Virus record (IMG/VR): IMGVR_UViG_2844443253_000003
Direction: 5' to 3' (one strand)
DNA length: 52,166 nt
Origin: a virus
Lineage: Duplodnaviria > Heunggongvirae > Uroviricota > Caudoviricetes
A program made the translations under genes and the position numbers. The notes under the pieces were generated by a model. The model made no database searches. It was given only the letters and a program-made list of their open reading frames with translations, and was not told the origin of the DNA. Below are positions 115 to 52,166 of the stretch, one piece after another; position 1 is the first letter of the stretch, and each line of letters begins with the position of its first letter.

Positions 115-190
115 GCCGATATAGCTCAGTTGGTAGAGCAGCGCATTCGTAATGCGAAGGTCGTAGGTTCGACTCCTATTATCGGCACCA
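115..190 (+). tRNA. thrW: tRNA-Thr (anticodon CGT), thrW-like; host attachment-site tRNA
   Basis: 76-nt cloverleaf read directly: acceptor GCCGATA/TATCGGC, D-arm AGCTCAGTTGGTAGAGC, anticodon CGT at 148-150, T-loop GGTTCGACTCC, 3' CCA. Confidence 0.9.
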
Positions 191-208
191 TTTAAATCAA
201 TAAGTTAC
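145..208 (+). repeat. attL core: 64 bp (3' part of tRNA-Thr plus 18 bp) repeated directly at 42729-42792 and inverted at 49020-49083
   Basis: repeat found by direct comparison; sequences diverge immediately outside these bounds. Confidence 0.85.
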
Positions 209-1368
209 ACATCATTAGTACCTTCCTTATTTTTTGACTGGGACAAATTTGGGACCGATGGGTTCAGGATCGAGTCTATTTGCCGTGCGTGTTCGGTAAG
301 GTGATTAGGTGCAAGGTGAGCATATCGACGAACCATTTCGATAGACTCCCAGCCTCCCATTTCCTGTAACACTGACAACGGGACTCCGGCTTGAACCAGC
401 CAACTTGCCCAGGTGTGTCTCAAGTCGTGAAATCTGAAATCATCAATACCAGCCCGTCTCAGCGCCGCTTTCCAGGCTGTGTTTGCGTCATACCGCATCT
501 TCCTTACTGTTGGCGCTTTCGTTCCGTCTGGTTTGGTACAGCTTTCCTTGTACACAAATACCCAACGGTGATGATTCCCGATTTGTTTTTTCAATACGCG
601 ACATGCAGTATCATTCAGCGCAACGCCAATTGCGCGGTTTGATTTACTCTCTTCCGGGTTTATCCATGCCACCCGGCGCTGCATATCTATTTGTTGCCAT
701 TCAAGGTTGATGATGTTCGAGCGTCTTAAACCTGTTGCCAGTGCAAATTCAACAACAGACTTTAATGGCTCCGGACATTCATCAATCAGCCTTTGTGCTT
801 CATGGGGCTCCAGCCAGCGGATCCGTTTATTCTTTGGTTGAGGCACTTTAATAATTGGTGCCTTATCCAGCATTTTCCATTCACGCTCTGCGGCTCTTAG
901 TAGGGCCTTTATAAATGAAAGATGCGTAGCCTTCGTTGCAACGGACGCTGGTTTTGGCGTGTATTCTGGAACAGGTTTCCCTTTTTTTCTGCATGCTTCT
1001 GCCCTGAGTCTCCAGTTTTCCTCATGACGCCGGTTCGTCATTTTCTGCATTGCTGAATAAATTTTTGATTCAGTAATGTCTCTTAGTTGCATTCCTGCGA
1101 AATGTTGAAGCCAGAATCCGATCCGGCTTTTGTCATCGTCCAGTGATTTTTTATGTGCTTTCTCTTCAAGCCACCTGACACACGCTTCCTCGAACGTTAT
1201 ATCAGGTATTTCACCAAGTTTGCTGACCCGCCATGCTTCAGCCTTTAGCTTGTCATGGAGTTCTGTCGCCTGCCTTTTGTCCTTTGTTCCAAGAGACTGT
1301 TTAAATCTTTTACCGTTCGGCAATGTGAAACTGGCGTACCATATTTCACCTCTGCGGAAGAGTGACAT
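205..1368 (-). CDS. int: phage tyrosine integrase
   Basis: 387-aa ORF ending inside the att core; C-terminal tyrosine-recombinase motifs ([19 protein letters not shown] ... VRRYAHL). Confidence 0.9.
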
Positions 1369-1595
1369 TTTCTTTCCTCTGTTATGCCATCACCCGCGCT
1401 CACCTGGACAGTATGCAGCGGAGACTGAAGAGCCGCAATGCAGGCTTGTCGTGTTGTGAGGTAAGGAGATTTATTCTTAGTGGGATCTTTGCGTGTTGCC
1501 TGAAGACGCCCTGTGCGTATCCAGTTAATGGCAGTCGGTCTGGATATCTTGAGAAAATGACAGGCCTCATCGAGTGTGAGGCTGTATGGCTCCAT
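1245..1595 (-). CDS. xis: excisionase-like HTH protein (AlpA/Xis family), start placed at MEPYSL
   Basis: small ORF immediately upstream of int on same strand; HTH-like segment [26 protein letters not shown]; ATG overlaps stop of upstream ORF (TAATG). Confidence 0.6.
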
Positions 1596-1921
1596 TATTT
1601 CACCTCTTGCTGTGACATTGTTGAAAAATGGATACCAGCTCGTTGCTGCCAGACGATCCAACCGAGAGCCATATCCCATGCCATGTATTCGTTATCGCCG
1701 TTTTTTGCTCTCCGACGATCTACTAAGTCCCCGAAACGCTTCTCCATAAATAATTCATAGGCTGCTCGTTCATCCGATACTGCTGCCAGTGATGCCAGTG
1801 CAATTTTTAATGCGGTAAGCATGTTGTTTTGATCTTCATCGAATCCGAACGGTATTTCATCCCGTGCTGACTCAATGCTGGTAATCGTGTTCTGTAACCA
1901 TTCTTTGGTAAGAGTATTCAT
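1595..1921 (-). CDS. hypothetical phage protein (C-terminal half shared with the copy at 46062-46367)
   Basis: 108-aa ORF in early-left gene string. Confidence 0.5.
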   Translation of the reverse strand: MNTLTKEWLQNTITSIESARDEIPFGFDEDQNNMLTALKIALASLAAVSDERAAYELFMEKRFGDLVDRRRAKNGDNEYMAWDMALGWIVWQQRAGIHFSTMSQQEVK

Positions 1922-14483: not shown

Positions 14484-14520
14484 GGCAGGAGGTCGCGCTA
14501 ACAACCTCCTGCCGTTTTGC
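14484..14520 (+). terminator. intrinsic terminator after the tRNA pair
   Basis: 10-bp perfect stem GGCAGGAGGT...ACCTCCTGCC followed by GTTTTGCC. Confidence 0.6.
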
Positions 14521-14638
14521 CCGTGCATATCGGTCACGAACAAATCTGATTACTAAACACAGTAACCTGGATTTGTTCTATCAGTAATCGACCTTATTCC
14601 TAATTAAATAGAGCAAATCCCCTTATTGTGGGTAAGAC

Positions 14639-15422: not shown

Positions 15423-15856
15423 ACAGAGTAACCGCGATTATCTCCGCTCTGGTTATCTGCATCATCGTCTGCCTGTCATGGGCGGTTAATCATTACCGTG
15501 ATAACGCCATCACTTACAAAAAGCAGCGTGATAAGGCCGCATCCATTATTACTGACATGCAGAAGCGTCAACGTGATGTAGCTGAACTCGATGCCAGATA
15601 TACAAAGGAGCTTGCTGATGCTAACGCGACTATCGAAAGTCTTCGTGCTGATGTTTCTGCTGGTCGTAAGTGGCTGCACGTCGCCGCCACCTGTGCAAAG
15701 TCAACGACCGGAGCCAGCGGCATGGGCGATGGAGAAAGCCCAAGACTTACAGCAGATGCTGAACTCAATTATTACCGTCTCCGAAGCGGAATCGACAGGA
15801 TAACCGCGCAGGTTAACTACCTGCAGGAGTACATCAGGATGCAATGCCTTCGATGA
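15419..15856 (+). CDS. Rz: i-spanin Rz
   Basis: 145 aa with N-terminal TM segment [20 protein letters not shown]; follows endolysin. Confidence 0.85.
15618..15803 (+). CDS. Rz1: o-spanin Rz1 lipoprotein embedded in +1 frame of Rz
   Basis: embedded ORF with lipobox-like LLVVSGC and Pro-rich tail; start codon uncertain. Confidence 0.55.
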
Positions 15857-17407: not shown

Positions 17408-17959
17408 ATGGCACTCACCGACAAGCAAGAAATGTTCTGTCGCGAGTACCTCATCGATTTAAACGCCACGCAAGCGGCTATTCGGGCGGGGTACAGCGCA
17501 AAGACAGCTAACCGTACCGCATCCGAAAACCTGTCAAAACCTGACATCAAGTTAAGAATCGCCGAACTGAAAGCGCAACGCAATGATCTTATTGGTATTA
17601 ATGCAGAATATGTACTTAATCGCCTTATTGAAATCGACCAGATGGATGTGCTCGACATTCTCCTGCAAAACGGTGAGCTAAAGCCCATTAAAGACTGGCC
17701 TAAGGTATGGCGCACAACGCTATCAGGAATGGATGTCGTGGAGATGGCATCCGCAGATAGCGCCGCACTTCTGAAGAAAATCAAATGGCCTGATAAGGTT
17801 AAAAACCTTGAATTGCTTGGGCGTCATGTTTCTGTTCAGGCGTTTAAAGACAACGTCAAAAATGAAGTGACTGGCGCTGATGGAGGACCAGTCAGAACAG
17901 AAATTACCAACTTAACGCCGGAGCAGGCTGCAGAGGCGTATAGAAAAATGATGGGCTAA
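17408..17959 (+). CDS. terminase small subunit
   Basis: 183 aa beginning [42 protein letters not shown] (terminase small-subunit signature as I recall it); immediately upstream of terL. Confidence 0.75.
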
Positions 17960-18136: not shown

Positions 18137-18208
18137 TGAAGTGGCACACTGAATTTGGCCACCTGAACAGAGGTGATATGCTCACCTCAGAACAACACAG
18201 GTGCTCCA

Positions 18209-19377
<1,169 letters not shown>

Positions 19378-19385
19378 CCACTTCA

Positions 19386-36533: not shown

Positions 36534-36886
36534 TGCGATACAGACGTGAAGACGCCGATGGCGATTACACCTTTGGCAGCGGTGATGACACCTGGCTGAT
36601 TAACTCACCGGAGGCCGTGGCGCAGGCGGTAAAAACGCGATTCGAATTGTGGTATGGGCAATGGTTTCTCGACACCACCGAGGGGACTCCGTGGATCCAG
36701 TCCGTACTCGGTAAGCAGAAGCCGGAAACCTACAACCTGGCGATCCGTAAGCGCATCCTCGAAACGCAGGGCGTTAAATCAATCCTCTCTTTCAATACGA
36801 CGGTGGATACCACGACCCGACGTGTCATGTTTTCCGCTGAAATCGACACTCTTTATGGAATAACGACTGTTACATCGGAGGCGTAA
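36533..36886 (+). CDS. baseplate protein W-like
   Basis: 117 aa between V-like and J-like genes. Confidence 0.5.
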   Translation: MRYRREDADGDYTFGSGDDTWLINSPEAVAQAVKTRFELWYGQWFLDTTEGTPWIQSVLGKQKPETYNLAIRKRILETQGVKSILSFNTTVDTTTRRVMFSAEIDTLYGITTVTSEA

Positions 36887-38085
36887 TGGCTCTGAACCTT
36901 GATTCTCTCGGTTTATCTGCAAAGGTAACCGCGGAGGGGATCAGTGCGCCTGATTATCAGACGATACTCAGCACCCTGATTAGCTATTTTCAGCAGATTT
37001 ATGGCAGTGATGCCTACCTCGAACCGGACAGCAAAGACGGCCAGATGGTGGCTCTGATGGCGCTGGCGATTCATGATGCCAATAATATGGCGATAACTGT
37101 CTACAACTGTTTTTCACCGGCAACCGGCTATGGGGCTGCACTGACCAGTAACGTGAAAATAAATGGTATTTCACGTAAAGGCGCGACGAACTCTACGGTT
37201 GATTTGCTTCTTACAGGAACTGCCGGAACAACCATCATTAATGGCAGCGTGAAAGACAGTAATAATGTGATATGGCGTTTGCCTGCTTCAGTGGTGGTCG
37301 GCGTGGATGGTACAGTGATGGTGACCGCAACATGTTCCGTCAGTGGTGCAGTGGCGGCGCTGGCTGGAACTATCACTGAAATTAATACGCCAACCCGTGG
37401 CTGGGTTTCGGTAACCAATCCTGCTGCGGCTACTGTGGGCACTCCGGCAGAAACTGATGCGGAGTTACGTATCCGACAGTCGCAAAGTGTTGCGTTGCCA
37501 TCAATAACCCCATTTGAAGCACTGGATGGTGCTGTTTCTAATGTTACCGGTGTAACCCGCCACAAACTCTATGAAAACGATAATGGTTCGGAGGACGGTA
37601 ACGGGTTACCGCCACACTCTGTTGCTGTAATTGTGGATGGCGGTGATGTGACGGATATTGCTCAGGCTATCAGAGGGAATAAAGGCCAGGGGACAGCCAC
37701 TCACGGTACAACATCCGTTACGGTTCCGGATAAATACGGCAATCCCCATGTAATCAAATTCTCGCGTTCCAGTGATGTACCTGTTTATGCCCGGATTAAA
37801 TTAAAAGTTTTTACGGGTTATACCTCACAGATAGGGCAGCAGATCCAGCAGGCTATTTCCGACTATATCAATAGTCTGATGATTGGTGATTCGGTCCTTT
37901 TAAGTCGCATTTACTCACCGGCGAATCTTGGCGTGGTGAGTGGCGGGAATGCACGCTATTACGATATTCAGGAACTGACGATTGGGAAATCCCCGGGGGC
38001 TTTGTCGTCATCAAACATTGATATCAGATACAACGAATCTGCGTCCTGTACCCCGGAAAATATCGTTATAACGGTGGAGTCATGA
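36886..38085 (+). CDS. baseplate J-like protein
   Basis: 399 aa; canonical position. Confidence 0.65.
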   Translation: MALNLDSLGLSAKVTAEGISAPDYQTILSTLISYFQQIYGSDAYLEPDSKDGQMVALMALAIHDANNMAITVYNCFSPATGYGAALTSNVKINGISRKGATNSTVDLLLTGTAGTTIINGSVKDSNNVIWRLPASVVVGVDGTVMVTATCSVSGAVAALAGTITEINTPTRGWVSVTNPAAATVGTPAETDAELRIRQSQSVALPSITPFEALDGAVSNVTGVTRHKLYENDNGSEDGNGLPPHSVAVIVDGGDVTDIAQAIRGNKGQGTATHGTTSVTVPDKYGNPHVIKFSRSSDVPVYARIKLKVFTGYTSQIGQQIQQAISDYINSLMIGDSVLLSRIYSPANLGVVSGGNARYYDIQELTIGKSPGALSSSNIDIRYNESASCTPENIVITVES

Positions 38086-38762
38086 GCAAATACACCGAAC
38101 TAATCACGAACTACCACGCCACCAAACCTAAATTTCTTGCGCATGTTGATCTGATGACCCGGCCGCTTATTGATGTTGCGGCTGCTACCAGAGGGCTGAT
38201 TACTGCATTTGATATTGACTCTGCGATTGGTGTGCAACTTGACATTCTGGGATTGTGGATCGGACGTAGCCGTGTTGTCAGCCAGCCTATCTCAGGAGTC
38301 TATTTCAGCTGGGATACCGACGGGCTTGGATATGATCAGGGGGTATGGCAGGGGCCATATGATCCTGATTCCGGATACATGTATCTCAGCGATGAAACTT
38401 ATCTTGTCATTCTTAAAGCGAAGATTGCGATTAATAACTGGGACGGACGGAATGATTCGCTTCCGGCAATTCTTGACGCGGCAACAGCAGGATCCGGGCT
38501 GCGCATGCAGATAGTCGATAACCAGGACATGACGATATCGGTCTGGGTCTTTCCTGATACGGATATTTCAGATGTATCGCGTGAGTTAATTGCGGCAATT
38601 AAACAGGGGTATCTCACAGTAAAAGCCGCCGGGGTATGGGCGGGTGGCATTGAAACACCTTCGGTGGAAACCCCATCGGAAGGCTCAAAATTTTTTGGTT
38701 TTGATATGGATAACGAATTCATCAGTGGTTTTGATGTAGGAGCATGGGGAGTATTACTCTGA
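38082..38762 (+). CDS. tail protein I-like
   Basis: 226 aa following J-like gene. Confidence 0.5.
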
Positions 38763-39460
38763 TGGCGAAAAATGACTTTAAAGCGTTTGCAACGGATCGA
38801 AATGCCAATGTTATGTCGCAGGAGGAATGGGAAGCGTTGCCTGCGCTTTTATCCGGATTTACAGCAGGTAAAGCATCCAGTGCGCAAGTCAATAAGGTTA
38901 TTCGGCAGGCCAGCTTTATTGCTGCAGCTCTGGCCCAGTTTGTAAGTGACAAAACGCAACGGGATGTGCTTGATAATGGTGATCTGCCCGGTTTTGTTGA
39001 ATTGCTGGGATCGGGGTTTGCTGTTGAATACCTGAGCCGCAAGAATCCGTTTGGCGATATCAAATCGGATGGCACTGTGCAAACGGCTCTCGCAAACCTT
39101 GGTTTGGGAGAAGCGGCTAAAAGGAATGTAGGTACAGGGGCGAATCAGATACCTGATATGAGCCTGTTCGCGTCAAGTAATACCGCAACGGCTGCTGCGC
39201 AAAAATTTCCGTCTGGATTAATTTTACAGTGCGGTCAGTTGAATGGTGCCCCGAATGTATCTTCAACATACGGGATGAGGTTTCCGATGACGTTCTCAAG
39301 AGTCATTGCTGTCGTAGTTACATTGAACGTTACTGGCGCGGCAGGGCAGCCGACTGTATCGGCGACAAATGTCCATAACACTGGATTTGATATTACAGTG
39401 TCGCCCGGTTCAGGATATGGTTCATCTGCTGATGCGTATTACATTGCAATGGGATATTAA
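38762..39460 (+). CDS. tail fiber protein
   Basis: ATG overlapping upstream stop (TGATG); followed by tail fiber assembly gene. Confidence 0.5.
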
Positions 39461-39464
39461 CGAA

Positions 39465-39872
39465 ATGTCATATTTTTATTCTGCATCGACAAACGGATTT
39501 TATTTGACTGAATTTCACGGCACCAATATTCCTGATGATGCAGTGGAAATCTCGGAATCAGAGTGGAAAACACTGATTAACTCACAGAGTGTCACAAAAA
39601 TGATTACCTGTGGTGAGGACGGTCACCCTGTCATTGTTGACCGTCCTTCTCCAACACTAGAACAATTAGCCTTAATAAATGATGAAAAGAAATCTGCACT
39701 GATAGCAGAGGCAACGAATGTAATAGCTCCGCTTCAGGATGCGGTTGATTTAGGTATGGCAACAGATGATGAAACGAAACTATTACTGGCATGGAAAAAA
39801 TATCGGGTGCTATTGATGCGTGTTGATATAAAAAATACAGAGTGGCCGAAAAAACCAGAGGGAAATAAATAA
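39465..39872 (+). CDS. tail fiber assembly protein
   Basis: N-terminus [19 protein letters not shown] typical of Tfa proteins. Confidence 0.65.
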
Positions 39873-39993
39873 GGGGGCGTTATCGGATGAAGAAAGAGGC
39901 CGTTAATTATAACTGCAGATGCCCCCCCTAAGTTTCGGGGGGGTTATTGATGCAAAACTTAGATCAATAACATTAAGTAACTACCATTCAACA

Positions 39994-41247
39994 TTAAGGC
40001 TGTTTTTTTATTAATGTCATCGTCCATCCTGCAGGGTTGAACTTGAAAGAATACGATTCTCCTGGTGCTAAGCTTTCAAATTTTTTAACTTGCTCTTTCC
40101 ACCCGTAATCTGGGAGTGGGGTAAGATTGAAAAAATATAAACATGAGATTAACGATGTTGTATATAACATCCATGGTAGGAATTTAAAGTGCAAGTGGGA
40201 AATATAGTTTAAGAAGTAAACCAATACAGAGTACCATATAATTGTTGGTATGACAGAATATCTTCCTCCGCCATGAATTAATAATGGCCATTGCTCACTT
40301 GTAGATGAAAGCATTGGTTTTGCTAGTGAAAACGTTAATGTTAGTATTGCGAAAACTATTGCCGAGCGCATGGGGTAATTGGAAACAATAAATGTAAAAA
40401 TAGTGATGGAAAGACAAATTATTGTAATTGCAATGCAAATTGAATCATGATTCCATAAAGGTGATAAAAAGTCACCATTAGCCCATAAACCCAGAAAAAC
40501 CTTTGTTGTTAATATTTTGCAAAGTGTTGCAAAATTAGCTCCAAGAACCATATCAACTCTGGTCTCAGAGGATGTCATAATAATAGAAATAAATTGAATC
40601 AAACAAATGGCAATGAAAACGTATTCGTGAGTGGTTATTTTTTTTGTAGATAAGCGTTTTTGTATAAGTATATTTATCCCTACCATTGGAGCCATGAATA
40701 CTATAAATGGACCACTTAGTCCACATATGATTATCGCTATATAATCGTGTGCTTTTTGATAATTATTTGTAGGCTTTGGAGCTAACATAACAAGAAGTAA
40801 ATATAGTGATAAATACCAATGATCATTAGTAACATTGGCGTGCACTTCTGATACTTCAGGCATTATTATAATAAACAAAGCAGTAAATATTCTTGGTGTT
40901 ATGTTTACGTAACTAAATCTTCCAGAGAGTATGAAAGATACAAGCAATGCCCTAACAATAATTGCGGAGATGTTAAAAATTAAAGGGGCATACATTAAAT
41001 TAAAATTTAATGATATGGAGGCAATAAGTTTTGATATGGTTTGATAATATCCATTTTGAGGGAATATCATTGATGTGAATATGCCATTATTGTATGCCAT
41101 AGCATACCATACATGACCATCTTCTGCCCAAAACTGCGGTGTTCTGATTATATCAGGGCGGCGCAAATACATCAAAATAACCGCAATGAAAAATACAGCA
41201 ATTAAGAAAAATAGTTTTTTTACATATGATGTTTTAAGGCTTTTCAT
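39994..41247 (-). CDS. serotype-specific O-antigen glucosyltransferase Gtr(type), polytopic membrane protein
   Basis: 417 aa, hydrophobic, AT-rich, third gene of gtrA-gtrB-gtr operon next to attR; exact type (GtrV/GtrX/other) not determinable here. Confidence 0.8.
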
Positions 41248-42167
41248 TTTTGTTTCTCATTTTTGATGATGTATTTGGGACGATGTTTGCTTTCAATATA
41301 GATTCTGCCTATATATTCACCGAGAACACCAATCCCGATCAGCTGCACTCCACCCAAGAAAAGTATTGATACAAGCAGGGAGGGATACCCGCGTACTGGG
41401 TTACCAAAGACAAGGGTGTCTATAATCATCCATGCACCATATAAAAATGAAATGCTTGCAACAAACAAGCCTATATAAGTCCATACGCGAAGAGGAAAGG
41501 TTGAAAAACTTGTGATACCTTCCAGTGCCAGATTCCATAATTTCCAGCCATTAAATTTTGAGATGCCAGCAACGCGCTCTGCGCGTACATATTCAACGAC
41601 ATCTGTCTGACCACCCACCCAGCTCAGTATGCCTTTCATGAAAAGATTGCGCTCAGGCAACAGTTTAATGTTCTCCACAACCTCACGAGACATGAGTCGA
41701 AAATCTCCGACATTTTCCTCGATCTTTGGGGTGCTTATTTTGTTGTGTAACTTATAGAACCACTCAGCTGTCTTACGTTTCAGTCGTCCATCAGTTGAGC
41801 GGTCTGAACGTTTAGCAAGCACCATGTCAGCACCTGCCTGCCACTTTTCAATAAGATGAGGGATAACCTCAATTGGGTCTTGCAGGTCGACATCAATAGG
41901 AATTACAGCATCGCCGCTTGCATGGTCTAACCCTGCAAATAAGGCTGGTTCTTTACCAAAGTTGCGTGTAAATGACAGCGGAACAACTAGCGGGTCTGAA
42001 ACAGCCAGCGCGTTAATAATTGACTCCGTGGCATCTTTACTTCCGTCATTTATGAATACAATTTCTACTTCATATGGCTTCAACTCTTGGAATTCACGTA
42101 CCGTTTTATAGAAAACAGGTATCGCTTCTTCTTCATTGAAGACAGGAACGACAAGAGATATTTTCAT
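41244..42167 (-). CDS. gtrB: bactoprenol glucosyltransferase GtrB
   Basis: 307 aa GT-2 family N-terminus [17 protein letters not shown]...INDGSKD; C-terminal TM helices. Confidence 0.9.
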
Positions 42168-42526
42168 TTCGCATCCCTAAAGACAATGAACTTTGAATAG
42201 ACGAAACCGCACACCAGGCTGATGGCGGAGAAGGTGATAAGAGTGACTATTGGAGGAAGTGAGCATTTATCAGCAGCCCAACCAACAATCACACTCAATA
42301 TTCCCATGAATCCCACGTATAACATGTAGCGCATCGCTGTAGTCGATGCTTTGAATGTGAATCTTGCATTCGCGAAGAAGCTAAAGCTCACAGCCACTAC
42401 GAAACCTGTGAAGTTTGCCAGGGCCTGACTGGTATGTGCGGCATAGATACATACACCAAAAACCACCCAGTGTATAAGTGTGTTCAGCACACCTATAGAT
42501 GTGTACTTTACAAATAACTTTAACAT
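42164..42526 (-). CDS. gtrA: GtrA flippase-like membrane protein
   Basis: 120 aa, four predicted TM segments, [23 protein letters not shown]. Confidence 0.9.
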
Positions 42527-42728
42527 TTATTTAATCAATGAGCTCTGAAAGGCATGAAGTCTATCATCCAAGTCTCAATTGATCGATACTTGCTATGTCT
42601 GATGAGACAAAACTGAGACACATAAGGCCTCACAATGGCTTGCAAGGCTTTACATGTTTTGATGTGGTGGGACGTGAGAGCGCAGTGTTGATGGGATAAT
42701 CTCTTGAATTACAAGCGGATTCTTATAA

Positions 42729-42792
42729 TTCGTAATGCGAAGGTCGTAGGTTCGACTCCTATTATCGGCACCATTTAAATCAATAAGTTACC
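42729..42792 (+). repeat. attR core: partial 3' tRNA-Thr copy, direct repeat of 145-208
   Basis: same 64-bp sequence; preceded by phage DNA instead of the tRNA 5' half. Confidence 0.85.
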
Positions 42793-43146
42793 TCGCATTT
42801 AAGTAAACTACGTTCTCCTCTTGTGCCGTATTTGTGCCATTGCGACTTATAATCGCATCGATTTTGCTCGCGTGCTCGGTAAGATGCCCGGCTGAAAGGT
42901 GGGCGTATCTTTGAACCATTTCGAGAGTTTCCCATCCTCCCATCTCTTTAAGCGCAAGAAGAGAGACACCGGACTGAACCAGCCAGCTTGCCCAGGTATG
43001 CCTCAGGTCATGGAAGCGGAAGTTGCTAATGCCTGCCCGCTTTAACGCTCCCTTCCATGCCTTGTTGCTGTCGGTTCTCATCTTCCTTACCGCTGCTGTT
43101 TTTGTTCCGTCGCTTCGGTAGGCAGGTTTGGTGTGGACAAACACCC
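42788..43146 (-). pseudogene. C-terminal fragment of a second, divergent tyrosine integrase, truncated by IS600
   Basis: [19 protein letters not shown]...VQRYAHL motifs; differs from int at 205-1368; reading frame runs into the IS600 end at 43147. Confidence 0.7.
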
Positions 43147-44412
43147 TGAGGTGTACTGGCAATAGCGGACACTACCATTTGTTCTTTTTTTAAGCAGCCA
43201 TCTGATGATATTTTTCCCTGAAGGCTGCCGGGGAGATATTCCCCAGACGAGAGTGACGACGCTGACGATTGTAGAAAATCTCAATGTATTCCCGTATTAC
43301 TGAGATGGCTTCATCCCGGTTATTAAAACGATAGTGGCTCAGGCTCTCATTTTTCAGCGTTCCCCAGAAGCTTTCCATCGGAGCGTTGTCGTAACAGTTA
43401 CCTTTACGCGACATTGATGTTTTCAGACCAAACTGCTCCTGTATGACCCGGTAATCGTATGCGCAGTACTGTGAACCTCGATCAGAGTGGTGGATTAGCC
43501 CGGCAGGTGGGCGCTGGCTCCTGAGCGCCATAAACAGGGCTTTACCTGTCAGCTCTTTTGTCATGCGCTCTCCCATGGCGTAGCCGACAATTTCGCACGT
43601 ATAAACATCTTTGATGCCAGCGAGGTACAACCATCCCTCCTGTGTGGCAACATACGTCAGGTCCGCCACCCAGACCTGATTTGGTGCTGTAGGAGCGAAC
43701 GTCTGGTTCAGCAGATTTGGCGCAACTGGCAGATTGTGGTTCGGGTTCGTAGTCGCTCTGAACTTGCGTTTCTGCTTACAGCGTAGCCTCAGCTCCTTAC
43801 GAAGACGTGCCAGTCGGTCACGACCAACGATGATGCCATTCTCTGCCAGCTCCGTCTGGAGCCGCCGGGTTCCATATGTTTCGCGAGTGCGGATATGTGC
43901 CACCTTAATCTCCGGTTTTAGCCGCTCATCACTTTGTTTTCTGTCTGAGGGTTCATGCTGTACCCAGTTGTAATAACCGCTCCTGGATACACCAAATACC
44001 TGACACATCGCTTCAATGGGAAATTGTTGTCGCCATTGTTCGATTAACGCGTATTTTTCAGCGACTCCTGTGCAAAATACGCTGTTGCTTTTTTTTAATA
44101 TATCTCGCTCAAGGCGAGCTTCATTTAACGCCTTACGCAGTTGCAGAATTTCAGATTCCAGTTCAGCCAGCGTGCGGGAACCAGGAGTACCGAGCCCTTT
44201 TCTGGCGGCGGTAACCCATTGTCCTAAAGTGCCTTCAGGAAGGAATAATCGGGAAGCGTCTTCACTGATCGAAAGTTGATTTTCAAGAACCGTTCTGACA
44301 GCTTCGGCTTTGAACTCTTTAGAGTAACGTTGGGTTTTTCTGCTCATTATTAGCTCCTTCTGATGCCATTCTATTTCAGGAAGGAGTGTCCGTTAAACTC
44401 AGGCTACCTCAG
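43147..44412 (-). mobile_element. IS600 (IS3 family) copy 1, no flanking target duplication
   Basis: ends TGAGGTAGCCTGAGTTTAACGGACACTCC / GGTAGTGTCCGCTATTGCCAGTACACCTCA shared with copies at 47312 and 51306; flanking triplets differ (CCC vs GAC). Confidence 0.85.
43190..44347 (-). CDS. IS600 transposase as a contiguous OrfAB fusion (385 aa)
   Basis: A-run of 8 at the slippery site (vs 7 in copy 2) puts orfA and orfB in one frame. Confidence 0.8.
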   Translation of the reverse strand: MSRKTQRYSKEFKAEAVRTVLENQLSISEDASRLFLPEGTLGQWVTAARKGLGTPGSRTLAELESEILQLRKALNEARLERDILKKSNSVFCTGVAEKYALIEQWRQQFPIEAMCQVFGVSRSGYYNWVQHEPSDRKQSDERLKPEIKVAHIRTRETYGTRRLQTELAENGIIVGRDRLARLRKELRLRCKQKRKFRATTNPNHNLPVAPNLLNQTFAPTAPNQVWVADLTYVATQEGWLYLAGIKDVYTCEIVGYAMGERMTKELTGKALFMALRSQRPPAGLIHHSDRGSQYCAYDYRVIQEQFGLKTSMSRKGNCYDNAPMESFWGTLKNESLSHYRFNNRDEAISVIREYIEIFYNRQRRHSRLGNISPAAFREKYHQMAA

Positions 44413-44509
44413 ACGTCCCGTATGATGGATATGAAATCAAGACAATCACACATCCTGAACCGCCCCGGGAATCCTGGAGACTAAACTTCCTGAGAAAGAG
44501 GTAAACAGG

Positions 44510-44832
44510 ATGACTAAAAATACTCGTTTTTCCCCCGAAGTCCGTCAACGGGCAGTCCGTATGGTTCTGGAAAGTCAGGGCGAATATGACTCACAATGGG
44601 CGACAATTTGTTCCATTGCCCCAAAGATTGGCTGTACGCCGGAGACTCTGCGTGTCTGGGGTCGCCAGCATGAGCGGGATACCGGGGGCGGTGATGGAGG
44701 GCTCACCACCGCTGAACGTCAGCGTCTGAAAGAGCTGGAGCGTGAAAATCGTGAACTGCGCCGCAGTAACGATATCCTTCGCCAGGCTTCCGCTTATTTT
44801 GCGAAGGCGGAGTTCGACCGCCTCTGGAAAAA

Positions 44833-44836
<4 letters not shown>
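44510..44836 (+). CDS. IS629 OrfA
   Basis: [50 protein letters not shown]. Confidence 0.85.
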
Positions 44837-45719
<883 letters not shown>

Positions 45720-45761
45720 GTTCACAGATAAAACACTCTCCAGGAAACCCGGGGCGGTTCA

Positions 45762-46062
45762 GAAAGTAAATGAAACAGATGCTGAATACCTGGTGCGTAA
45801 ATTCGATGAGCTTGAAGCTAAATGTGCAGCACAGGAAAACAAAGTAATACCAGTGTCAACTGAACTGCCACCAGCAAATGAAAGTGTTTTGTTATTCGAT
45901 GCTAACGGAGAAGGCTGGCTAATTGGCTGGCGTTCTCTCTGGTACACCTGGGGACAAAAAGAAACCGGAGAATGGCAGTGGACATTTCAGGTCGGGGACC
46001 TTGAAAACGTCAATATCACTCACTGGGCAGTAATGCCAAAAGCACCGGAGGCTGGAGCATAA
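45762..46062 (+). pseudogene. Ead/Ea22-like gene, C-terminal fragment truncated by IS629
   Basis: [19 protein letters not shown]... similar to 4524-5039; ORF upstream part lies inside IS629. Confidence 0.55.
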
Positions 46063-46367
46063 TGACCACTTTTACCGACAAAGAACTGATTAAAGAAATT
46101 AAAGAGCGTATCAGCAGCCTTGACGTGCGAGACGATATTGAGCGCCGTGCTTATGAAATCGCACTCCTATCTCTGGAAGTAGAACCAGATGAACGCGAAG
46201 CTTATGAATTATTCATGGAAAAGCGTTTTGGTGACTTAGTAGATCGTCGGAGAGCAAAAAACGGCGATAACGAATACATGGCATGGGATATGACTCTCGG
46301 TTGGATCGTCTGGCAGCAACGAGCTGGTATCCATTTCTCAACAATGTCACAGCAAGAGGTGAAATAA
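46062..46367 (+). CDS. hypothetical phage protein (mosaic relative of 1595-1921)
   Basis: C-terminal 55 aa near-identical to 1595-1921 product, N-terminus different. Confidence 0.5.
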   Translation: MTTFTDKELIKEIKERISSLDVRDDIERRAYEIALLSLEVEPDEREAYELFMEKRFGDLVDRRRAKNGDNEYMAWDMTLGWIVWQQRAGIHFSTMSQQEVK

Positions 46368-46717
46368 TGGAGCCATACAGCCTCACACTCGATGAGGCCT
46401 GTCATTTTCTCAAGATATCCAGACCGACTGCCATTAACTGGATACGCACAGGGCGTCTTCAGGCAACACGCAAAGATCCCACTAAGAATAAATCTCCTTA
46501 CCTCACAACACGACAAGCCTGCATTGCGGCTCTTCAGTCTCCGCTGCATACTGTCCAGGTGAGCGCGGGTGATGGCATAACAGAGGAAAGAAAATGTCAC
46601 TCTTCCGCAGAGGTGAAATATGGTACGCCAGTTTCACATTGCCGAACGGTAAAAGATTTAAACAGTCTCTTGGAACAAAGGACAAAAGGCAGGCGACAGA
46701 ACTCCATGACAAGCTAA
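46367..46717 (+). CDS. xis: excisionase-like protein, second copy
   Basis: near-identical to 1245-1595 product. Confidence 0.55.
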
Positions 46718-47311
46718 AGGCTGAAGCATGGCGGGTCAGCAAACTTGGTGAAATACCTGATATAACGTTCGAGGAAGCGTGTGTCAGGTGGCTTGAAGAG
46801 AAAGCACATAAAAAATCACTGGACGATGACAAAAGCCGGATCGGATTCTGGCTTCAACATTTCGCAGGAATACAACTAAGAGACATTACTGAATCAAAAA
46901 TTTATTCAGCAATGCAGAAAATGACGAACCGGCGTCATGAGGAAAACTGGAAACTCAGGGCAGAATCATGCAGAAAAAAAGGGAAACCTGTTCCAGAATA
47001 CACGCCAAAACCAGCGTCCGTTGCAACGAAGGCTACGCATCTTTCATTTATAAAGGCCCTACTAAGAGCCGCAGAGCGTGAATGGAAAATGCTGGATAAG
47101 GCACCAATTATTAAAGTGCCTCAACCAAAGAATAAACGGATCCGCTGGCTGGAGCCCCATGAAGCACAAAGGCTGATTGATGAATGTCCGGAGCCATTAA
47201 AGTCTGTTGTTGAATTTGCACTGGCAACAGGCTTAAGACGCTCGAACATCATCAACCTTGAATGGCAACAAATAAATATGCAGCGCCGGGTGGCATGGAT
47301 AAACCCGGAAG
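46594..47311 (+). pseudogene. int: integrase N-terminal fragment (second copy) interrupted by IS600
   Basis: about 98% identical to N-terminal 238 aa of int 205-1368; frame broken at IS600 left end. Confidence 0.8.
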
Positions 47312-47375
47312 TGAGGTAGCCTGAGTTTAACGGACACTCCTTCCTGAAATAGAATGGCATCAGAAGGAGCTAATA

Positions 47376-47678
47376 ATGAGCAGAAAAACCCAACGTTACT
47401 CTAAAGAGTTCAAAGCCGAAGCTGTCAGAACGGTTCTTGAAAATCAACTTTCGATCAGTGAAGGCGCTTCCCGATTATCTCTTCCTGAAGGCACTTTAGG
47501 ACAATGGGTTACCGCCGCCAGAAAAGGGCTCGGTACTCCTGGTTCCCGCACGCTGGCTGAACTGGAATCTGAAATTCTGCAACTGCGTAAGGCGTTAAAT
47601 GAAGCTCGCCTTGAGCGAGATATATTAAAAAAAGCAACAGCGTATTTTGCACAGGAGTCGCTGAAAAATACGCGTTAA
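47376..47678 (+). CDS. IS600 OrfA
   Basis: 100 aa MSRKTQRYSKEFKAEAVRTVLENQ... Confidence 0.85.
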   Translation: MSRKTQRYSKEFKAEAVRTVLENQLSISEGASRLSLPEGTLGQWVTAARKGLGTPGSRTLAELESEILQLRKALNEARLERDILKKATAYFAQESLKNTR

Positions 47679-47713
47679 TCGAACAATGGCGACAACAATT
47701 TCCCATTGAAGCG

Positions 47714-48532
47714 ATGTGTCAGGTATTTGGTGTATCCAGGAGCGGTTATTACAACTGGGTACAGCATGAACCCTCAGACAGAAAACAAAGTGATGAGCGG
47801 CTAAAACTGGAGATTAAGGTGGCACATATCCGCACTCGCGAAACATATGGAACCCGGCGGCTCCAGACGGAGCTGGCAGAGAATGGCATCATCGTTGGTC
47901 GTGACCGACTGGCACGTCTTCGTAAGGAGCTAAGGCTACGCTGTAAGCAGAAACGCAAGTTCAGAGCGACTACGAACCCGAACCACAATCTGCCAGTTGC
48001 GCCAAATCTGCTGAACCAGACGTTCGCTCCTACAGCACCAAATCAGGTCTGGGTGGCGGACCTGACGTATGTTGCCACACAGGAGGGATGGTTGTACCTC
48101 GCTGGCATCAAAGATGTTTATACGTGCGAAATTGTCGGCTACGCCATGGGAGAGCGCATGACAAAAGAGCTGACAGGTAAAGCCCTGTTTATGGCGCTCA
48201 GGAGCCAGCGCCCACCTGCCGGGCTAATCCACCACTCTGATCGAGGTTCACAGTACTGCGCATACGATTACCGGGTCATACAGGAGCAGTCTGGTCTGAA
48301 AACATCAATGTCGCGTAAAGGTAACTGTTACGACAACGCTCCGATGGAAAGCTTCTGGGGAACGCTGAAAAATGAGAGCCTGAGCCACTATCGTTTTAAT
48401 AACCGGGATGAAGCCATCTCAGTAATACGGGAATACATTGAGATTTTCTACAATCGTCAGCGTCGTCACTCTCGTCTGGGGAATATCTCCCCGGCAGCCT
48501 TCAGGGAAAAATATCATCAGATGGCTGCTTAA
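47714..48532 (+). CDS. IS600 OrfB (DDE domain)
   Basis: 272 aa in -1 frame relative to orfA; A7 slippery run at 47627-47633. Confidence 0.85.
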   Translation: MCQVFGVSRSGYYNWVQHEPSDRKQSDERLKLEIKVAHIRTRETYGTRRLQTELAENGIIVGRDRLARLRKELRLRCKQKRKFRATTNPNHNLPVAPNLLNQTFAPTAPNQVWVADLTYVATQEGWLYLAGIKDVYTCEIVGYAMGERMTKELTGKALFMALRSQRPPAGLIHHSDRGSQYCAYDYRVIQEQSGLKTSMSRKGNCYDNAPMESFWGTLKNESLSHYRFNNRDEAISVIREYIEIFYNRQRRHSRLGNISPAAFREKYHQMAA

Positions 48533-48574
48533 AAAAGAACAAATGGTAGTGTCCGCTATTGCCAGTACACCTCA

Positions 48575-49023
48575 AAGAGAGTAAATCAAACCGCGCAATT
48601 GGCGTTGCGCTGAATGATACTGCATGTCGCGTATTGAAAAAACAAATCGGAAATCATCACCGTTGGGTATTTGTGTACAAGGAAAGCTGTACCAAACCAG
48701 ACGGAACGAAAGCGCCAACAGTAAGGAAGATGCGGTATGACGCAAACACAGCCTGGAAAGCGGCGCTGAGACGGGCTGGTATTGATGATTTCAGATTTCA
48801 CGACTTGAGACACACCTGGGCAAGTTGGCTGGTTCAAGCCGGAGTCCCGTTATCAGTGTTACAGGAAATGGGAGGCTGGGAGTCTATCGAAATGGTTCGT
48901 CGATATGCTCACCTCGCACCTAATCACCTTACCGAACACGCACGGCAAATAGACTTGATTCTGAACCCATCGGTCCCAAATTTGTCCCAGTCAAGAAATA
49001 AGGAAGGTACTAATGATGTGTAA
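48575..49023 (+). pseudogene. int: integrase C-terminal fragment (second copy)
   Basis: ESKSNRAIG...[16 protein letters not shown]...GTNDV, near-identical to C-terminus of int 205-1368. Confidence 0.8.
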
Positions 49024-49083
49024 CTTATTGATTTAAATGGTGCCGATAATAGGAGTCGAACCTACGACCTTCGCATTACGAAT
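49020..49083 (-). repeat. third copy of the 64-bp att core, inverted, joined to unique DNA
   Basis: reverse complement of 145-208; sequence beyond 49084 matches neither the tRNA 5' half nor the gtrA promoter region. Confidence 0.8.
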
Positions 49084-49371
49084 CTGTAGCACCAATCATA
49101 ACTATCTGTTTTAGCAAGCATTAACCGCATTCACTAAGCTATAGTTGATGACACAAACAGAAAGTTGATGCATGATGTTGCCATATATATGTCACAAATA
49201 CGGCACAACGATCTTCAAACATATAGCCACACATTCACAGAAGAGCACAAAGCCTTGCAATCCAGTGCAAAGCTTGGTGTGTCTCCGTTTTGTTTCATCA
49301 GTTACACATAACTATATGATCATTAACTAAAAGTCAGTATACTTGGAGAAATTTTAATTGCGTAATAGAGC

Positions 49372-50544
49372 ATGCATATGATTGAAATTAACAGTTTATT
49401 ATTAATAACATCCGTGATATTGATGTCGTTATTAGCTGTGGGGTTATTTGATAAAATTTCCCCAATAAATCTTGTTGAGCACGGCAGGAATAATCAAATA
49501 GATGGAATGCGGGGGTTCTTAGCAATTTTCGTGCTTATTCATCACGCAGCAATTTGGAATGGATACTTGTCATCTGGAGTATGGGAAGCACCTTCATCAA
49601 ATCTGTTAGCAAATTTAGGCCAAGTTGGTGTGTCATTCTTTTTTATGATTACTGGTTATCTGTTCTTTTCAAAGATTATCTCTGGAGATCAGGACTGGAC
49701 AAGGCTTTATGTATCAAGATTACTACGATTAACCCCAATGTTCATAGTTAGCCTATGTCTCATTTTTATCATTGTAGGTTTTAAGTCTGGATGGAGAATG
49801 CAGGTATCCACAGAAGAGCTTTTTGTGTCAATAATGAAGTGGTTGCCATTCACTGCGCTAGGTATGCCGAACATTAATGACGTAAAAGATTCATTTACTA
49901 TCAATGCCGCTGTAACATGGACACTTGTATATGAATGGTTCTTTTATTTTTCTCTTCCGGTAATTTCCGCGCTCATAAAAAGAAAAGTCAGTATTTACAT
50001 GGTTATGATTAGCGCAATATCGCTATTTGTTTTCATTTTATTTTTCAGTAAAATACACATAGCATCATTTCTTTTTGGGCTCCTGGCATTTTTGCTAAAT
50101 AAATCAAAGATAGTCAATGGAATTGCCAAAGCAAAAGTAACACCAATTATAATAACTGCGATAATGGTTTTTGAAATGACGTATTTCAAAACAACTTACG
50201 CACCGCTACCACTGATTCTTTGTGGAATAACATTTATCATTATCGCATCAGGTTGTGATTTGTATGGAATATTAAGATTAAATATAACCAGAAAGCTAGG
50301 AGAAACTACCTACAGCGTTTACCTTCTGCATGGGATATTCCTTTATTGCCTAATGACGTGGATTATTCCTAATAATTACACTGAAAATACATTTATCATA
50401 CTGGTAAGCACAACTGCATTTCTTATTACGTTCACATCATGCCTAACTTTTAAATTAATAGAGACGCCATTCATCAAATTAACAAAACAAACCACAACTT
50501 TAGTAAAAGAATTAATACCCACATTAACAAACAACAATCAATAA
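49372..50544 (+). CDS. acyltransferase-3 family integral membrane protein, candidate O-antigen O-acetyltransferase
   Basis: 390 aa, about 10 TM segments, AT-rich; N-proximal motif IDGMRGFLAIFVLIHH typical of acyltransferase-3/OafA-like enzymes. Confidence 0.7.
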   Translation: MHMIEINSLLLITSVILMSLLAVGLFDKISPINLVEHGRNNQIDGMRGFLAIFVLIHHAAIWNGYLSSGVWEAPSSNLLANLGQVGVSFFFMITGYLFFSKIISGDQDWTRLYVSRLLRLTPMFIVSLCLIFIIVGFKSGWRMQVSTEELFVSIMKWLPFTALGMPNINDVKDSFTINAAVTWTLVYEWFFYFSLPVISALIKRKVSIYMVMISAISLFVFILFFSKIHIASFLFGLLAFLLNKSKIVNGIAKAKVTPIIITAIMVFEMTYFKTTYAPLPLILCGITFIIIASGCDLYGILRLNITRKLGETTYSVYLLHGIFLYCLMTWIIPNNYTENTFIILVSTTAFLITFTSCLTFKLIETPFIKLTKQTTTLVKELIPTLTNNNQ

Positions 50545-50597
50545 ACAATAAACATAAGCCGCCCTACATATATGTCCAAATGGGGCGGCGAATGTAT

Positions 50598-51305
50598 TTA
50601 TATTAGTCTGGTAATGCTAAATGCAAACGAACTGGAGATTCCTGCCCCGCTAAGCGTATTGCGCAGGGTCACCCTAAATGTATCTACGCCAATATAAGTA
50701 ACATCACAACTAACTGAATCAGGCGCAGATATAGGTGTTATCTGCACAATATAACCGCTAGCAACTGCTGCGAGCGGATGAGAAAAGCTAACATCATACA
50801 CACCTGTAGAAACCACGTTAACCGATGAAACACCAGTAGCAACGTCGATACTACCATTGGCGTTAATTTTTCCCGAGCGTGTGACTGACAATGCAGAAGC
50901 CGATGTTACCTTACTGGTTGTTTCTGTAAAAACACACCCAATGTCAACTACCTCGCAATTAGCTCCTGTTATCCAGTATGGTCGTTCTGCACTTGGCTGA
51001 TAATCCCCTGCGCTCTGGAACGTTGTGCCGTTGAGTATGACTGTAACTTTTCCCCCACCTGAGCTTGTTACTTGAATATTCGTGTGCGTGTATCTTGCAC
51101 TGCTCACGCGATGAAAATTTCCACCGTTTATAACCACAGTTACAGGGCGCGTCCCAGTATTATCTATAGCAAGGTCTGCCCCCCCGGCATTAGCCTCAAA
51201 GTATGGGTTGTTTAATACCAAAGCGCACGAACCGTTAAGGCCATTTATAGCTAATTGCGCACCACCTGTACTGGAATCCCCCTGAGTACCATTTCCTTCA
51301 CAAGT
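50598..51305 (-). pseudogene. N-terminally truncated gene of unknown function (Ser/Thr/Gly/Val-rich), cut by IS600
   Basis: open frame continues without a start codon up to the IS600 end at 51306. Confidence 0.45.
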
Positions 51306-52166
51306 TGAGGTGTACTGGCAATAGCGGACACTACCATTTGTTCTTTTTTAAGCAGCCATCTGATGATATTTTTCCCTGAAGGCTGCCGGGGAGATATTCC
51401 CCAGACGAGAGTGACGACGCTGACGATTGTAGAAAATCTCAATGTATTCCCGTATTACTGAGATGGCTTCATCCCGGTTATTAAAACGATAGTGGCTCAG
51501 GCTCTCATTTTTCAGCGTTCCCCAGAAGCTTTCCATCGGAGCGTTGTCGTAACAGTTACCTTTACGCGACATTGATGTTTTCAGACCAAACTGCTCCTGT
51601 ATGACCCGGTAATCGTATGCGCAGTACTGTGAACCTCGATCAGAGTGGTGGATTAGCCCGGCAGGTGGGCGCTGGCTCCTGAGCGCCATAAACAGGGCTT
51701 TACCTGTCAGCTCTTTTGTCATGCGCTCTCCCATGGCGTAGCCGACAATTTCGCACGTATAAACATCTTTGATGCCAGCGAGGTACAACCATCCCTCCTG
51801 TGTGGCAACATACGTCAGGTCCGCCACCCAGACCTGATTTGGTGCTGTAGGAGCGAACGTCTGGTTCAGCAGATTTGGCGCAACTGGCAGATTGTGGTTC
51901 GGGTTCGTAGTCGCTCTGAACTTGCGTTTCTGCTTACAGCGTAGCCTCAGCTCCTTACGAAGACGTGCCAGTCGGTCACGACCAACGATGATGCCATTCT
52001 CTGCCAGCTCCGTCTGGAGCCGCCGGGTTCCATATGTTTCGCGAGTGCGGATATGTGCCACCTTAATCTCCGGTTTTAGCCGCTCATCACTTTGTTTTCT
52101 GTCTGAGGGTTCATGCTGTACCCAGTTGTAATAACCGCTCCTGGATACACCAAATACCTGACACAT
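51306..52166 (-). mobile_element. IS600 copy 3, partial (runs off window end)
   Basis: right-end repeat and orfB (51348-52166) matching copies 1 and 2. Confidence 0.8.

Follow-up and report, generated by a model that had tools for sequence, protein, structure and literature searches.

The window analysed here, a stretch of 52,166 nucleotides, is 100% identical to the Shigella genome CP026793.1 and belongs to its proA-thrW...adrA region (SHI-O). As detailed in Table 1, the window begins with the integration end of a resident SfV-like gtrV prophage at thrW and continues beyond the other end of that prophage into a mixture of IS elements, pieces of phage integration modules, and the O-antigen modification gene oacB. 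The 64-bp att core occurs in three identical copies, the first 46 nt of which are the published core of SfI, SfII, SfV, SfX, and P22 (PMC3636060); the published sequence, ATTCGTAATGCGAAGGTCGTAGGTTCGACTCCTATTATCGGCACCA, is matched exactly at 145-190, at 42728-42773, and, as the reverse complement, at 49038-49083. The exact protein encoded by int1 is common beside proA-thrW in E. coli.

Table 1. Features of the window, in order of position (nucleotides from its first letter)
Feature	Position	Strand	Evidence or remark
thrW, tRNA-Thr(CGT), tRNA gene bearing attB	115..190	+	ARAGORN
att core copy 1	145..208	+	sequence comparison of the three copies
int1, intact 387-aa integrase of resident SfV-like gtrV prophage	205..1368	-	PF00589
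xis1, 116 aa, HTH_17	1245..1595	-	
yfdT-like gene of resident prophage	1595..1921	-	homology to inverted copy stops at 1806, within the gene
att core copy 2 (resident prophage attR), adjoins gtrA P arm	42728..42791	+	
SfX-type integrase 3' fragment, cut by IS600 copy 1	42788..43146	-	self-BLAST, protein comparison
IS600 copy 1	43147..44411	- (transposase strand)	flanks CCC and GAC, without target duplication
IS629/IS1203-like IS3-family element	44456..45761	+	
yfdS', 5' end cut off by IS629-like element	45762..46062	+	E. coli homology from 45759
yfdT-like gene of remnant	46062..46367	+	identity to prophage copy from 46156
xis3, protein identical to xis1	46367..46717	+	PF12728 match
int3 5' part, 241-aa ORF	46594..47311	+	tyrosine-recombinase profiles, PF00589
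IS600 copy 2, inside int3	47312..48574	+	target duplication AAG (47309-47311 / 48575-48577)
int3 3' part	48575..49023	+	tyrosine-recombinase profiles
att core copy 3, inverted relative to thrW	49020..49083	-	
SfX-type attP 'P' arm	49084..49301	-	95-98% to SfX U82084, HK542, ECP1
oacB, O-antigen 3/4-O-acetyltransferase, AT3 family, 390 aa	49372..50544	+	PF01757
P22-like tailspike 3' fragment, cut by IS600 copy 3	50598..51305	-	98.2% to SfX tailspike 3' end
IS600 copy 3, cut at window end	51306..52166	-	followed by inverted IS629 and adrA (yaiC) in source genome

Phage DNA resumes, within yfdS', exactly where the IS629-like element ends, and the segment from there through att core copy 3 is a decayed remnant of one or more older phages rather than a copy of the resident prophage end. 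It retains the layout of a thrW integration module of the P22/SfV type: the 46-bp core matching the 3' end of thrW lies beside int3, the int3 frame ends at the core, and a helix-turn-helix excisionase gene (xis3) overlaps the int3 start. A functional integrase is absent because int3 is interrupted by IS600 copy 2; the module is thus a remnant, and recombination at its att site requires an integrase supplied in trans. The interrupting element is a simple insertion and the single lesion in int3. It has the characteristics of an IS600 (IS3 family) in its length (1263 bp), its terminal repeats (TGAGGT...CGGACAC), its orfA/orfB pair (100 and 272 aa), and its 3-bp target duplication, and RefSeq labels matching DNA as 'IS3-like element IS600 family transposase'. 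Once reconstructed, int3 reads as one open frame of 387 codons, the product of which differs from that of int1 at 6 of 387 residues (98.4% identity).

The initial annotation had described this segment as an inverted near-duplicate of the int-xis end of the prophage, about 98% identical at the protein level and interrupted only by IS600 copy 2, a description that our alignments confirm. Positions 145-1806 are the reverse complement of 46156-49083 with the IS element intervening, and self-BLAST recovers the match in two segments (145-653 against 49083-48575, 98.8% over 509 bp; 647-1806 against 47315-46156, 97.8% over 1160 bp; E = 0 for both). With IS600 copy 2 and one AAG taken out, the two copies align without gaps over 1662 bp with 30 mismatches (98.2% identity), of which 13 fall in 145-1729 and 17 in 1730-1806; the Xis proteins agree at all 116 residues. 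The limits of the repeat, previously put at about 46200 and 1770, were roughly right and are refined here to 46156 and 1806. Identity decays inside the yfdT-like gene on both sides, the encoded proteins being near-identical over their C-terminal ~56 residues and divergent in the N-terminal half, which bears out the mosaic junction that had been proposed within this gene.

Adjoining the resident attR is a second, more divergent integrase sequence, which the initial annotation had also picked out and which proves to be of SfX type: its protein is 99.2% identical to the Int of SfX, HK542, and mEpX2, and at the nucleotide level 42728-43146 is 71% identical to 145-563 in direct orientation. There are consequently three types of integrase in the window (int1, int3, and this fragment), each abutting an identical 64-bp core, an arrangement that supports the earlier suggestion of at least three integrations at thrW. 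In the source genome a second IS629-like copy, inverted, follows IS600 copy 3 just beyond the window. When we attempted to pair the target duplications of IS600 copies 1 and 3 and of both IS629 copies, the flanks mismatched in every pairing tried, so that target duplications give no order for the earlier IS-mediated steps.

The remnant does contain the int-xis end attributed to it, but it does not stop at the att core, being continued there by an SfX-type attP arm, by oacB, and by a fragment of a tailspike gene. In SfX U82084, HK542, and ECP1 this P arm adjoins an SfX-type int, whereas in the window it is joined to int3; we therefore rejected the possibility that int-core-oacB represents the unrecombined attP of a single phage. 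The OacB protein carries all 19 of the residues named in PMC8952252 at the same positions (including R47, H58, W71, F98, R116, R119, and S146), and 2457T, like numerous further S. flexneri genomes, encodes exactly the same 390-aa protein; its gene is 91.5% identical in nucleotide sequence to oacB of Sf101 (annotated 'O-acyltransferase B'). With int3 on its left and IS600 copy 3 on its right, followed in the source genome by IS629 and the MASE2-GGDEF gene adrA/yaiC, this characterised gene lies between the flanks described for the oacB element (PMC8973906).

An indication of how these parts came together is provided by E. coli, in which a yfdRST-xis-int module adjoins proA-thrW in many strains. 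In E. coli GDSC2BY4G, the int-core-P-arm junction is 98.9% identical to the window over 45759-49301, and there it separates two tandem prophages, with the P22-like tailspike end of one set against the lambdoid int end of the other. On this comparison, the int3-core-P arm segment of the window looks like a hybrid junction between old tandem prophages at thrW. The 5,426 complete genomes of E. coli that we searched (a collection without Shigella) supplied E. coli comparators, and none of them has the window's junctions.

The initial annotation had also recommended a comparison of thrW regions among related strains, and that comparison reveals the same block in mirror-image orientation. No difference over 1662 bp separates the int3::IS600 allele that lies beside oacB, as in the window and its source genome, from the one beside thrW-proA, as in Sf301 and three further loci. 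Altogether, Sf301 is one of eight assemblies in which int3::IS600 adjoins thrW in direct orientation, with the block between the outer att cores mirrored, and between those cores CP178302.1 shows the block order of the window fully reversed, as a mirror image. The breakpoints of the flip (144|145 and 49083|49084) are located at att cores, with no IS at either, and in both isomers IS600 copy 2 retains its target duplication and the int halves remain collinear. Since the first allele-diagnostic SNP is at 233, the exchange took place within 145-232 (88 bp, comprising the 46-bp att core and 42 bp more); this interval contains no diagnostic SNPs, and the exchange is therefore not placeable inside the 46-bp core itself. 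The proposal that the 1.6-kb inverted homology could invert the whole block is thus borne out insofar as Sf301-type genomes carry the exact mirror, but the exchange is confined to the first 88 bp and does not fall in the body of the repeat, so that site-specific recombination by Int is no less likely than general homologous recombination. We did not find a flipped isomer of the resident SfV-like prophage: its specific 108-aa protein is located beside int and proA in all eight of the matches listed, only one of which is a complete Shigella genome, the source itself. In a published comparison (PMC7565858, Fig. 2), SfI remnants are inverted relative to a complete SfI lysogen while the oacB remnant is collinear.

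We note in addition that the two orientations have been observed solely between strains, each as a fixed state, and that the region contains no dedicated invertase; we do not class it as a programmed switch of the Hin/Gin/Fim type.

The anatomy of the locus, the identities of its parts, the place of the exchange, and the mirror-image arrangements are seen directly; from them we infer an order of events and a responsible enzyme that together form what we regard as the probable history of the region: a junction between two phage remnants, later entry of an SfV-like phage, and an att-bounded inversion mediated by Int. The yfdS'-yfdT-xis-int part, with int subsequently split by IS600, would be the decayed left end of an old lambdoid prophage belonging to the yfdRST type, which occurs very commonly at thrW in E. 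coli. The att core of this prophage would have become joined to another old phage at its right end, an SfX-like, P22-like podovirus carrying oacB where the gtr cluster would be. The attP arm, oacB, and the 3' end of the tailspike gene would be the survivors of that podovirus, and the SfX-type integrase stump is probably its left end. IS600 and IS629 insertions, deletions, and an inversion would then have left the junction upside down before adrA, and IS events were probably behind this original inversion. In the CP026793.1 strain an SfV-like gtrV myovirus would later have integrated normally at thrW, giving rise to the inverted int-xis repeat of 1.6 kb and to two att cores that lie ~49 kb apart in inverted orientation. 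Such inverted att/int sites could act as recombination partners, and in the Sf301 lineage all that lies between the outer cores has been inverted as a single block, most likely by the integrase of a resident or infecting phage acting on attL and the inverted attP-like site. An exchange within the 88 bp that include the att core fits an Int-mediated inversion, and the attP x attL reaction that this family uses for integrating in tandem has been documented for SfI at attL of SfX (Sun et al. 2011, PMC3306764).

The flip may instead have resulted from RecA-dependent homologous recombination between the inverted int-xis copies, with a crossover that fell near the att core by chance, an account that we consider rather unlikely. 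The arms (506 bp and ~1080 bp, at least 99% identical, with perfect runs of up to 534 bp) are ample for RecA, and two of the compared loci (L007 and L012) have patches of int3-specific SNPs inside the oacB-side int that resemble gene conversion and would imply that the copies interact by homology, although polishing of repeats with short reads could also have produced such patches as artefacts. If crossovers are taken as uniformly distributed, an exchange confined to the first 88 of ~1360-1660 homologous bp has a 5-17% chance, the value of ~17% applying if IS600 copy 2 must end on the thrW side and the crossover thus falls in 88 bp of the 506-bp arm. If, moreover, a second similar int was still absent when the flip took place, the sequence shared with the 71%-identical SfX-type int would have been limited to the 64-bp core. 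We think it very improbable that the window-type and Sf301-type orientations arose by an IS600- or IS629-mediated inversion, as most Shigella rearrangements do. IS600 is present three times in the region and IS629 as an inverted pair, the rearrangement that separates 2457T from the Sf301 type has its breakpoints in IS600 copies, a large rearrangement at another of the compared loci was mediated by IS600 copy 2, and Nie et al. 2006 ascribed an inversion around SHI-O to IS629; IS events thus explain other differences between strains, but the absence of IS at either core breakpoint and the undisturbed state of IS600 copy 2 in both isomers argue against them here. Finally, the high identity and the proximity to the other prophage end might have pointed to an assembly artefact (a misjoined repeat or, as the initial annotation had named it, a collapsed one) or to a resident int-xis end that was recently duplicated in inverted orientation. 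Both readings are refuted for all practical purposes by the 30 fixed differences (including 6 amino-acid changes), the IS600 insertion with its target duplication, and the unlike flanks on both sides, by the identical int3::IS600 allele in genomes without the resident SfV-like prophage (Sanger-era Sf301 among them), and by the int-core-oacB junction in 2457T and at least 10 independent complete assemblies. The mismatches, the unlike flanks, and the presence of the allele in genomes without that prophage also uphold the view that the segment derives from a related phage distinct from the resident one.

Taken by itself, an inverted remnant beside oacB is an ordinary and largely known feature, conserved in most S. 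flexneri genomes. The passages of PMC4159516, PMC4206707, and PMC8973906 that cite Wang et al. 2014 describe a "transposon-like" oacB element upstream of adrA (yaiC), flanked by an integrase and IS, present in S. flexneri serotypes 1a, 1b, 2a, 5a, and Y within the SHI-O serotype-conversion region, and regard it as a cassette that was mobilised by IS and moved there from phage Sf101 at sbcB. The window agrees with these passages in the gene, in its place ahead of IS600-IS629-adrA, and in its integrase/IS flanks; the flanking integrase is the IS600-split int3 in the window versus an intact 387-aa int in 2457T and Sf301-type genomes. Unlike in the published view, however, oacB is here contiguous with an SfX-type attP arm, the thrW core, and an SfX-type tailspike, which, together with its divergence from Sf101 oacB, points to delivery by a thrW-integrating SfX-like phage, an origin of the chromosomal oacB that would be more economical than IS translocation. 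With known tandem integrations at thrW (SfI into SfX attL; E. coli GDSC2BY4G) the locus shares the att core, the int/xis family, and phage-core-phage junctions, but its junction is inverted relative to thrW and reduced by IS to ~5.5 kb. Serotype-converting blocks have likewise been found in both orientations among strains, as in the SHI-O inversion between Sf8401 and Sf301 (PMC1550401) and the inverted SfI remnants of strain Y394 (PMC7565858), whereas the breakpoints here are at inverted att cores and not at IS elements. That such att-core breakpoints fit an integrase-catalysed inversion is not stated in the literature that we searched, and constitutes a modest new detail.

The general understanding of such regions is unchanged by these observations, as prophage remnants, tandem integration, and inversion between phage repeats are all well known. 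A broader and more doubtful idea is that the inverted attP-like site serves as a standing Int partner for any serotype-converting phage resident at thrW, that recurrent Int-catalysed flips of the whole prophage with the remnants are a regular early stage in the domestication of gtr prophages, and, as a corollary, that oacB reached adrA via an SfX-like phage and not by IS translocation from Sf101; the recurrent flips are suggested by the canonical orientation of complete prophages and the inverted orientation of decayed ones. The practical bearing of the locus lies in the O-antigen serotype of S. flexneri, which this region sets through gtrV and oacB and on which both typing and serotype-specific immunity depend. 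The two att-bounded orientations of the thrW-oacB block explain discordant SHI-O maps between strains, and any PCR scheme across proA, int, gtr, oacB, and adrA would be expected not to work on one of the isomers.

Comparison of the window with itself shows that positions 145-653 are the reverse complement of 49083-48575 (98.8% identity) and positions 647-1806 that of 47315-46156 (97.8%), with a 1263-bp IS600 (copy 2, 47312-48574) as the spacer between the two homologous pieces. Their 7-bp overlap includes AAG, the 3-bp target duplication of this insertion. After removal of IS600 copy 2 and one AAG, the two copies align end to end over 1662 bp without a gap and with 30 mismatches, 13 of them in 145-1729 and 17 in 1730-1806, where identity decays; perfect matches run up to 534 bp. 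The reconstructed inverted integrase gene (int3) is an open frame of 387 codons that differs from the intact integrase of the resident prophage (int1) at 6 residues, and the Xis proteins (116 aa) are identical. The two YfdT-like proteins nearly match over their C-terminal 56 or so residues, and their N-terminal halves are unrelated. The inverted int-xis near-duplicate proposed in the initial annotation is therefore confirmed, as is a break of identity within the yfdT-like gene, but its limits move from 1770 and 46200 to 145-1806 and 46156-49083.

At loci retrieved by exact protein look-up, the window matches CP026793.1 (GCA_002950255.1) with 100% identity: positions 1-15573 of one (L024) correspond to window 36594-52166, and the other (L038) corresponds to window 1-6421. 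Beyond IS600 copy 3, that genome continues with an inverted IS629, the MASE2-GGDEF gene adrA (yaiC), proC, and further genes. The window therefore covers SHI-O, the serotype-conversion region proA-thrW...adrA, in a genome of Shigella flexneri type. Att copies 1 and 2 enclose a 42.6-kb mosaic lambdoid prophage with SfV-like myovirus tail genes and a gtrA-gtrB-gtrV cluster 97.6% identical to that of SfV. The first 46 nt of the repeated att sequence are the published att core of SfI, SfII, SfV, SfX, and P22 (PMC3636060). The integrase fragment at att copy 2 is 99.2% identical in protein sequence to the SfX, HK542, HK446, and mEpX2 integrases. With the resident SfV-like phage included, three integrase types lie at three att cores, and at least three integrations at thrW, as had been suggested, follow from this.

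Features around thrW, the att cores, and the inverted remnant
Feature	Position	Remarks
thrW, tRNA-Thr (CGT)	115-190	
att copy 1	145-208	64 bp, identical to the other two
att copy 2	42728-42791	64 bp, identical to the other two
Integrase 3' fragment	42788-43146	abuts att copy 2; cut off by IS600 copy 1
44-bp segment	44412-44455	separates IS600 copy 1 from the IS629-like element
IS629/IS1203-like element	44456-45761	complete
yfdS		5'-truncated; left of the homologous block
att copy 3	49020-49083	64 bp, inverted, identical to the other two
218-bp segment	49084-49301	P arm of SfX-type attP
AT3 acyltransferase gene (OacB)		390 aa; right of the P arm
P22-like tailspike gene, 3' end		convergent with the acyltransferase gene; cut by IS600 copy 3

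The inverted copy is a prophage remnant within the oacB element, an ordinary feature of S. flexneri architecture that is largely documented already. Exact OacB and the int-core-oacB-tailspike'-IS600 layout recur in many complete S. flexneri genomes, 2457T (AE014073) among them. Sf301 (AE005674) and others share the exact 5' fragment of int3, likewise interrupted by IS600 at this position. For the host proA-yaiC interval, a putative int, IS600, and IS629 have been described (PMC3306764). The yfdR/S/T-xis-int module forms the left end in a family of lambdoid prophages found extremely often next to proA-thrW in E. coli. The first 37 bp of the 44-bp segment (44412-44448) recur exactly in loci L009, L016, L018-L020, L022, and L024.

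Right of the inverted att core we found no bacterial DNA, but a phage-type segment, oacB, and a tailspike end. The 218-bp segment is assigned to an SfX-type attP since in SfX (U82084), HK542, and ECP1 it lies across the att core from an SfX-type int. The acyltransferase has every one of the 19 residues that the OacB mutagenesis study names, at the stated positions (PMC8952252), and the tailspike fragment shares 98.2% identity with the 3' end of the SfX tailspike. Two papers have offered IS-mediated translocation from Sf101 at sbcB as the source of chromosomal oacB. However, the Sf101 oacB-tailspike region matches the window at only 91.5%, which, together with the adjoining SfX-type attP arm and tailspike end, argues that oacB before adrA was delivered by a thrW-integrating, SfX-like podovirus rather than from Sf101. 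This SfX-like, thrW-phage signature appears to be a new detail.

The remnant occurs in two settings. In Sf301 (L025) and in loci L016 and L018-L023, int3::IS600 is joined via the att core to the 5' part of thrW and to proA, and so has the canonical direct orientation. In the window, L024, L009, and L010, what follows the core is instead the oacB arm. The int3 allele is the same at 1662 of 1662 positions in both settings, as are the internal junctions (IS600 copy 1, 44-bp segment, IS629, and yfdS'), so the two arrangements share an ancestor and differ by a rearrangement. Joining two loci (L021 and L013) gave the whole proA-adrA interval of CP178302.1, in which all blocks between the outer att cores are reversed in order and orientation relative to the window; the SfV-like prophage is replaced by an SfII remnant, and oacB has an intact 387-aa int beside it. 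Neither breakpoint of this inversion carries an IS. The first allele-diagnostic SNP lies at position 233, from which the thrW-side copy in the CP178302.1-type arrangement is int3-type and the oacB-side copy SfII-type; this places the exchange within 145-232 (the 46-bp core plus 42 bp). Such confinement fits inversion by a phage integrase, as the putative enzyme, acting on attL and an inverted attP-like site, a type of reaction documented for these phages by the integration of SfI at attL of SfX (PMC3306764). A RecA crossover within the same 88 bp, which would have a chance of about 17% given the 506-bp arm, is a less likely origin. Inversion of the whole block, which the initial annotation had considered possible by homologous recombination, is seen between strains, in a form that fits an integrase. 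Among the eight matches listed for a 108-aa protein specific to the SfV-like prophage, no flipped isomer of that prophage was found. That the window-type and Sf301-type arrangements are related by an inversion bounded by att cores, not by IS, also appears to be new.

As to how the remnant arose, int, core, and P arm are likewise contiguous in E. coli GDSC2BY4G (98.9% over window 45759-49301), at a junction that joins tandem prophages, one P22-like (tailspike end) and one lambdoid (int start). The simplest reading is that 45762-51305 would be what is left of such a junction: an SfX-like podovirus with oacB may have been followed, in tandem, by a yfdRST-type lambdoid phage, with the SfX-type int stump at 42788-43146 as the putative left end of the podovirus. 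A remnant of a related but distinct phage had been anticipated, and the yfdS'-yfdT-xis-int end is indeed fused to an SfX-type arm, oacB, and tailspike. The junction is inverted relative to thrW and bracketed by inverted IS629 copies, which agrees with a possible IS-mediated inversion; comparison of the flanks of the IS copies shows that target duplications fail to reconstruct its steps. This early history, with tandem integration first and IS inversion and deletion later, is argued from parsimony.

Further rearrangements are apparent in other genomes. In 2457T (L014), gtrII-gtrB-gtrA-core-SfX-type int stump-IS600 lies immediately beside xis'-int387, whereas in Sf301-type genomes (L013/L025) tail-fibre genes lie at that IS600; from this difference we infer a further, IS600-bounded inversion within SHI-O between these classic 2a references. 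In UDWW01000005.1 (L017, 10783-13000), IS600 copy 2 is bordered on the right by another integrase fragment instead of the int3 3' part, followed by acpS-pdxJ-recO-era-rnc, with adrA at the other side, which indicates a large chromosomal rearrangement via this IS600. Published maps place SfI remnants in inverted synteny with a complete SfI lysogen, the oacB remnant being collinear (PMC7565858), and an inversion by which Sf8401 and Sf301 differ around SHI-O has been ascribed to IS629 (PMC1550401). The intact oacB-side int (locus positions 8355-9712) of CP106857.1 (L007; 996A/1010T/1090T) and CP045941.1 (L012; 376T, 451-508, 996A/1010T) carries int3-specific SNP patches, which point to gene conversion from one inverted int copy to the other if they are not artefacts of short-read polishing. 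In CP178302.1 (4.44 Mb, labelled E. coli ECMA0423), the SHI-O layout is that of S. flexneri 2a, and many housekeeping genes (proA, proB, phoE, frsA, rdgC) are annotated in fragments; the record looks like a Shigella flexneri assembly rich in indels and deposited as E. coli.

Within the SfV-like gtrV prophage, a 1249-bp IS3-family element (18137-19385; ends TGAAGTGG.../...CCACTTCA; flanked by GACC on both sides) sits shortly after the small-terminase gene (17408-17959, PF03592), where it apparently interrupts the large-terminase gene, and the prophage is therefore probably packaging-defective. The same IS interrupts the xis region of the remnant in CP026871.1 (L009). The late-regulatory region of the prophage also holds tRNA-Asn(GTT) and tRNA-Thr(TGT) genes (14241-14396), a pair shared with SfI-like phages, where it has been reported.
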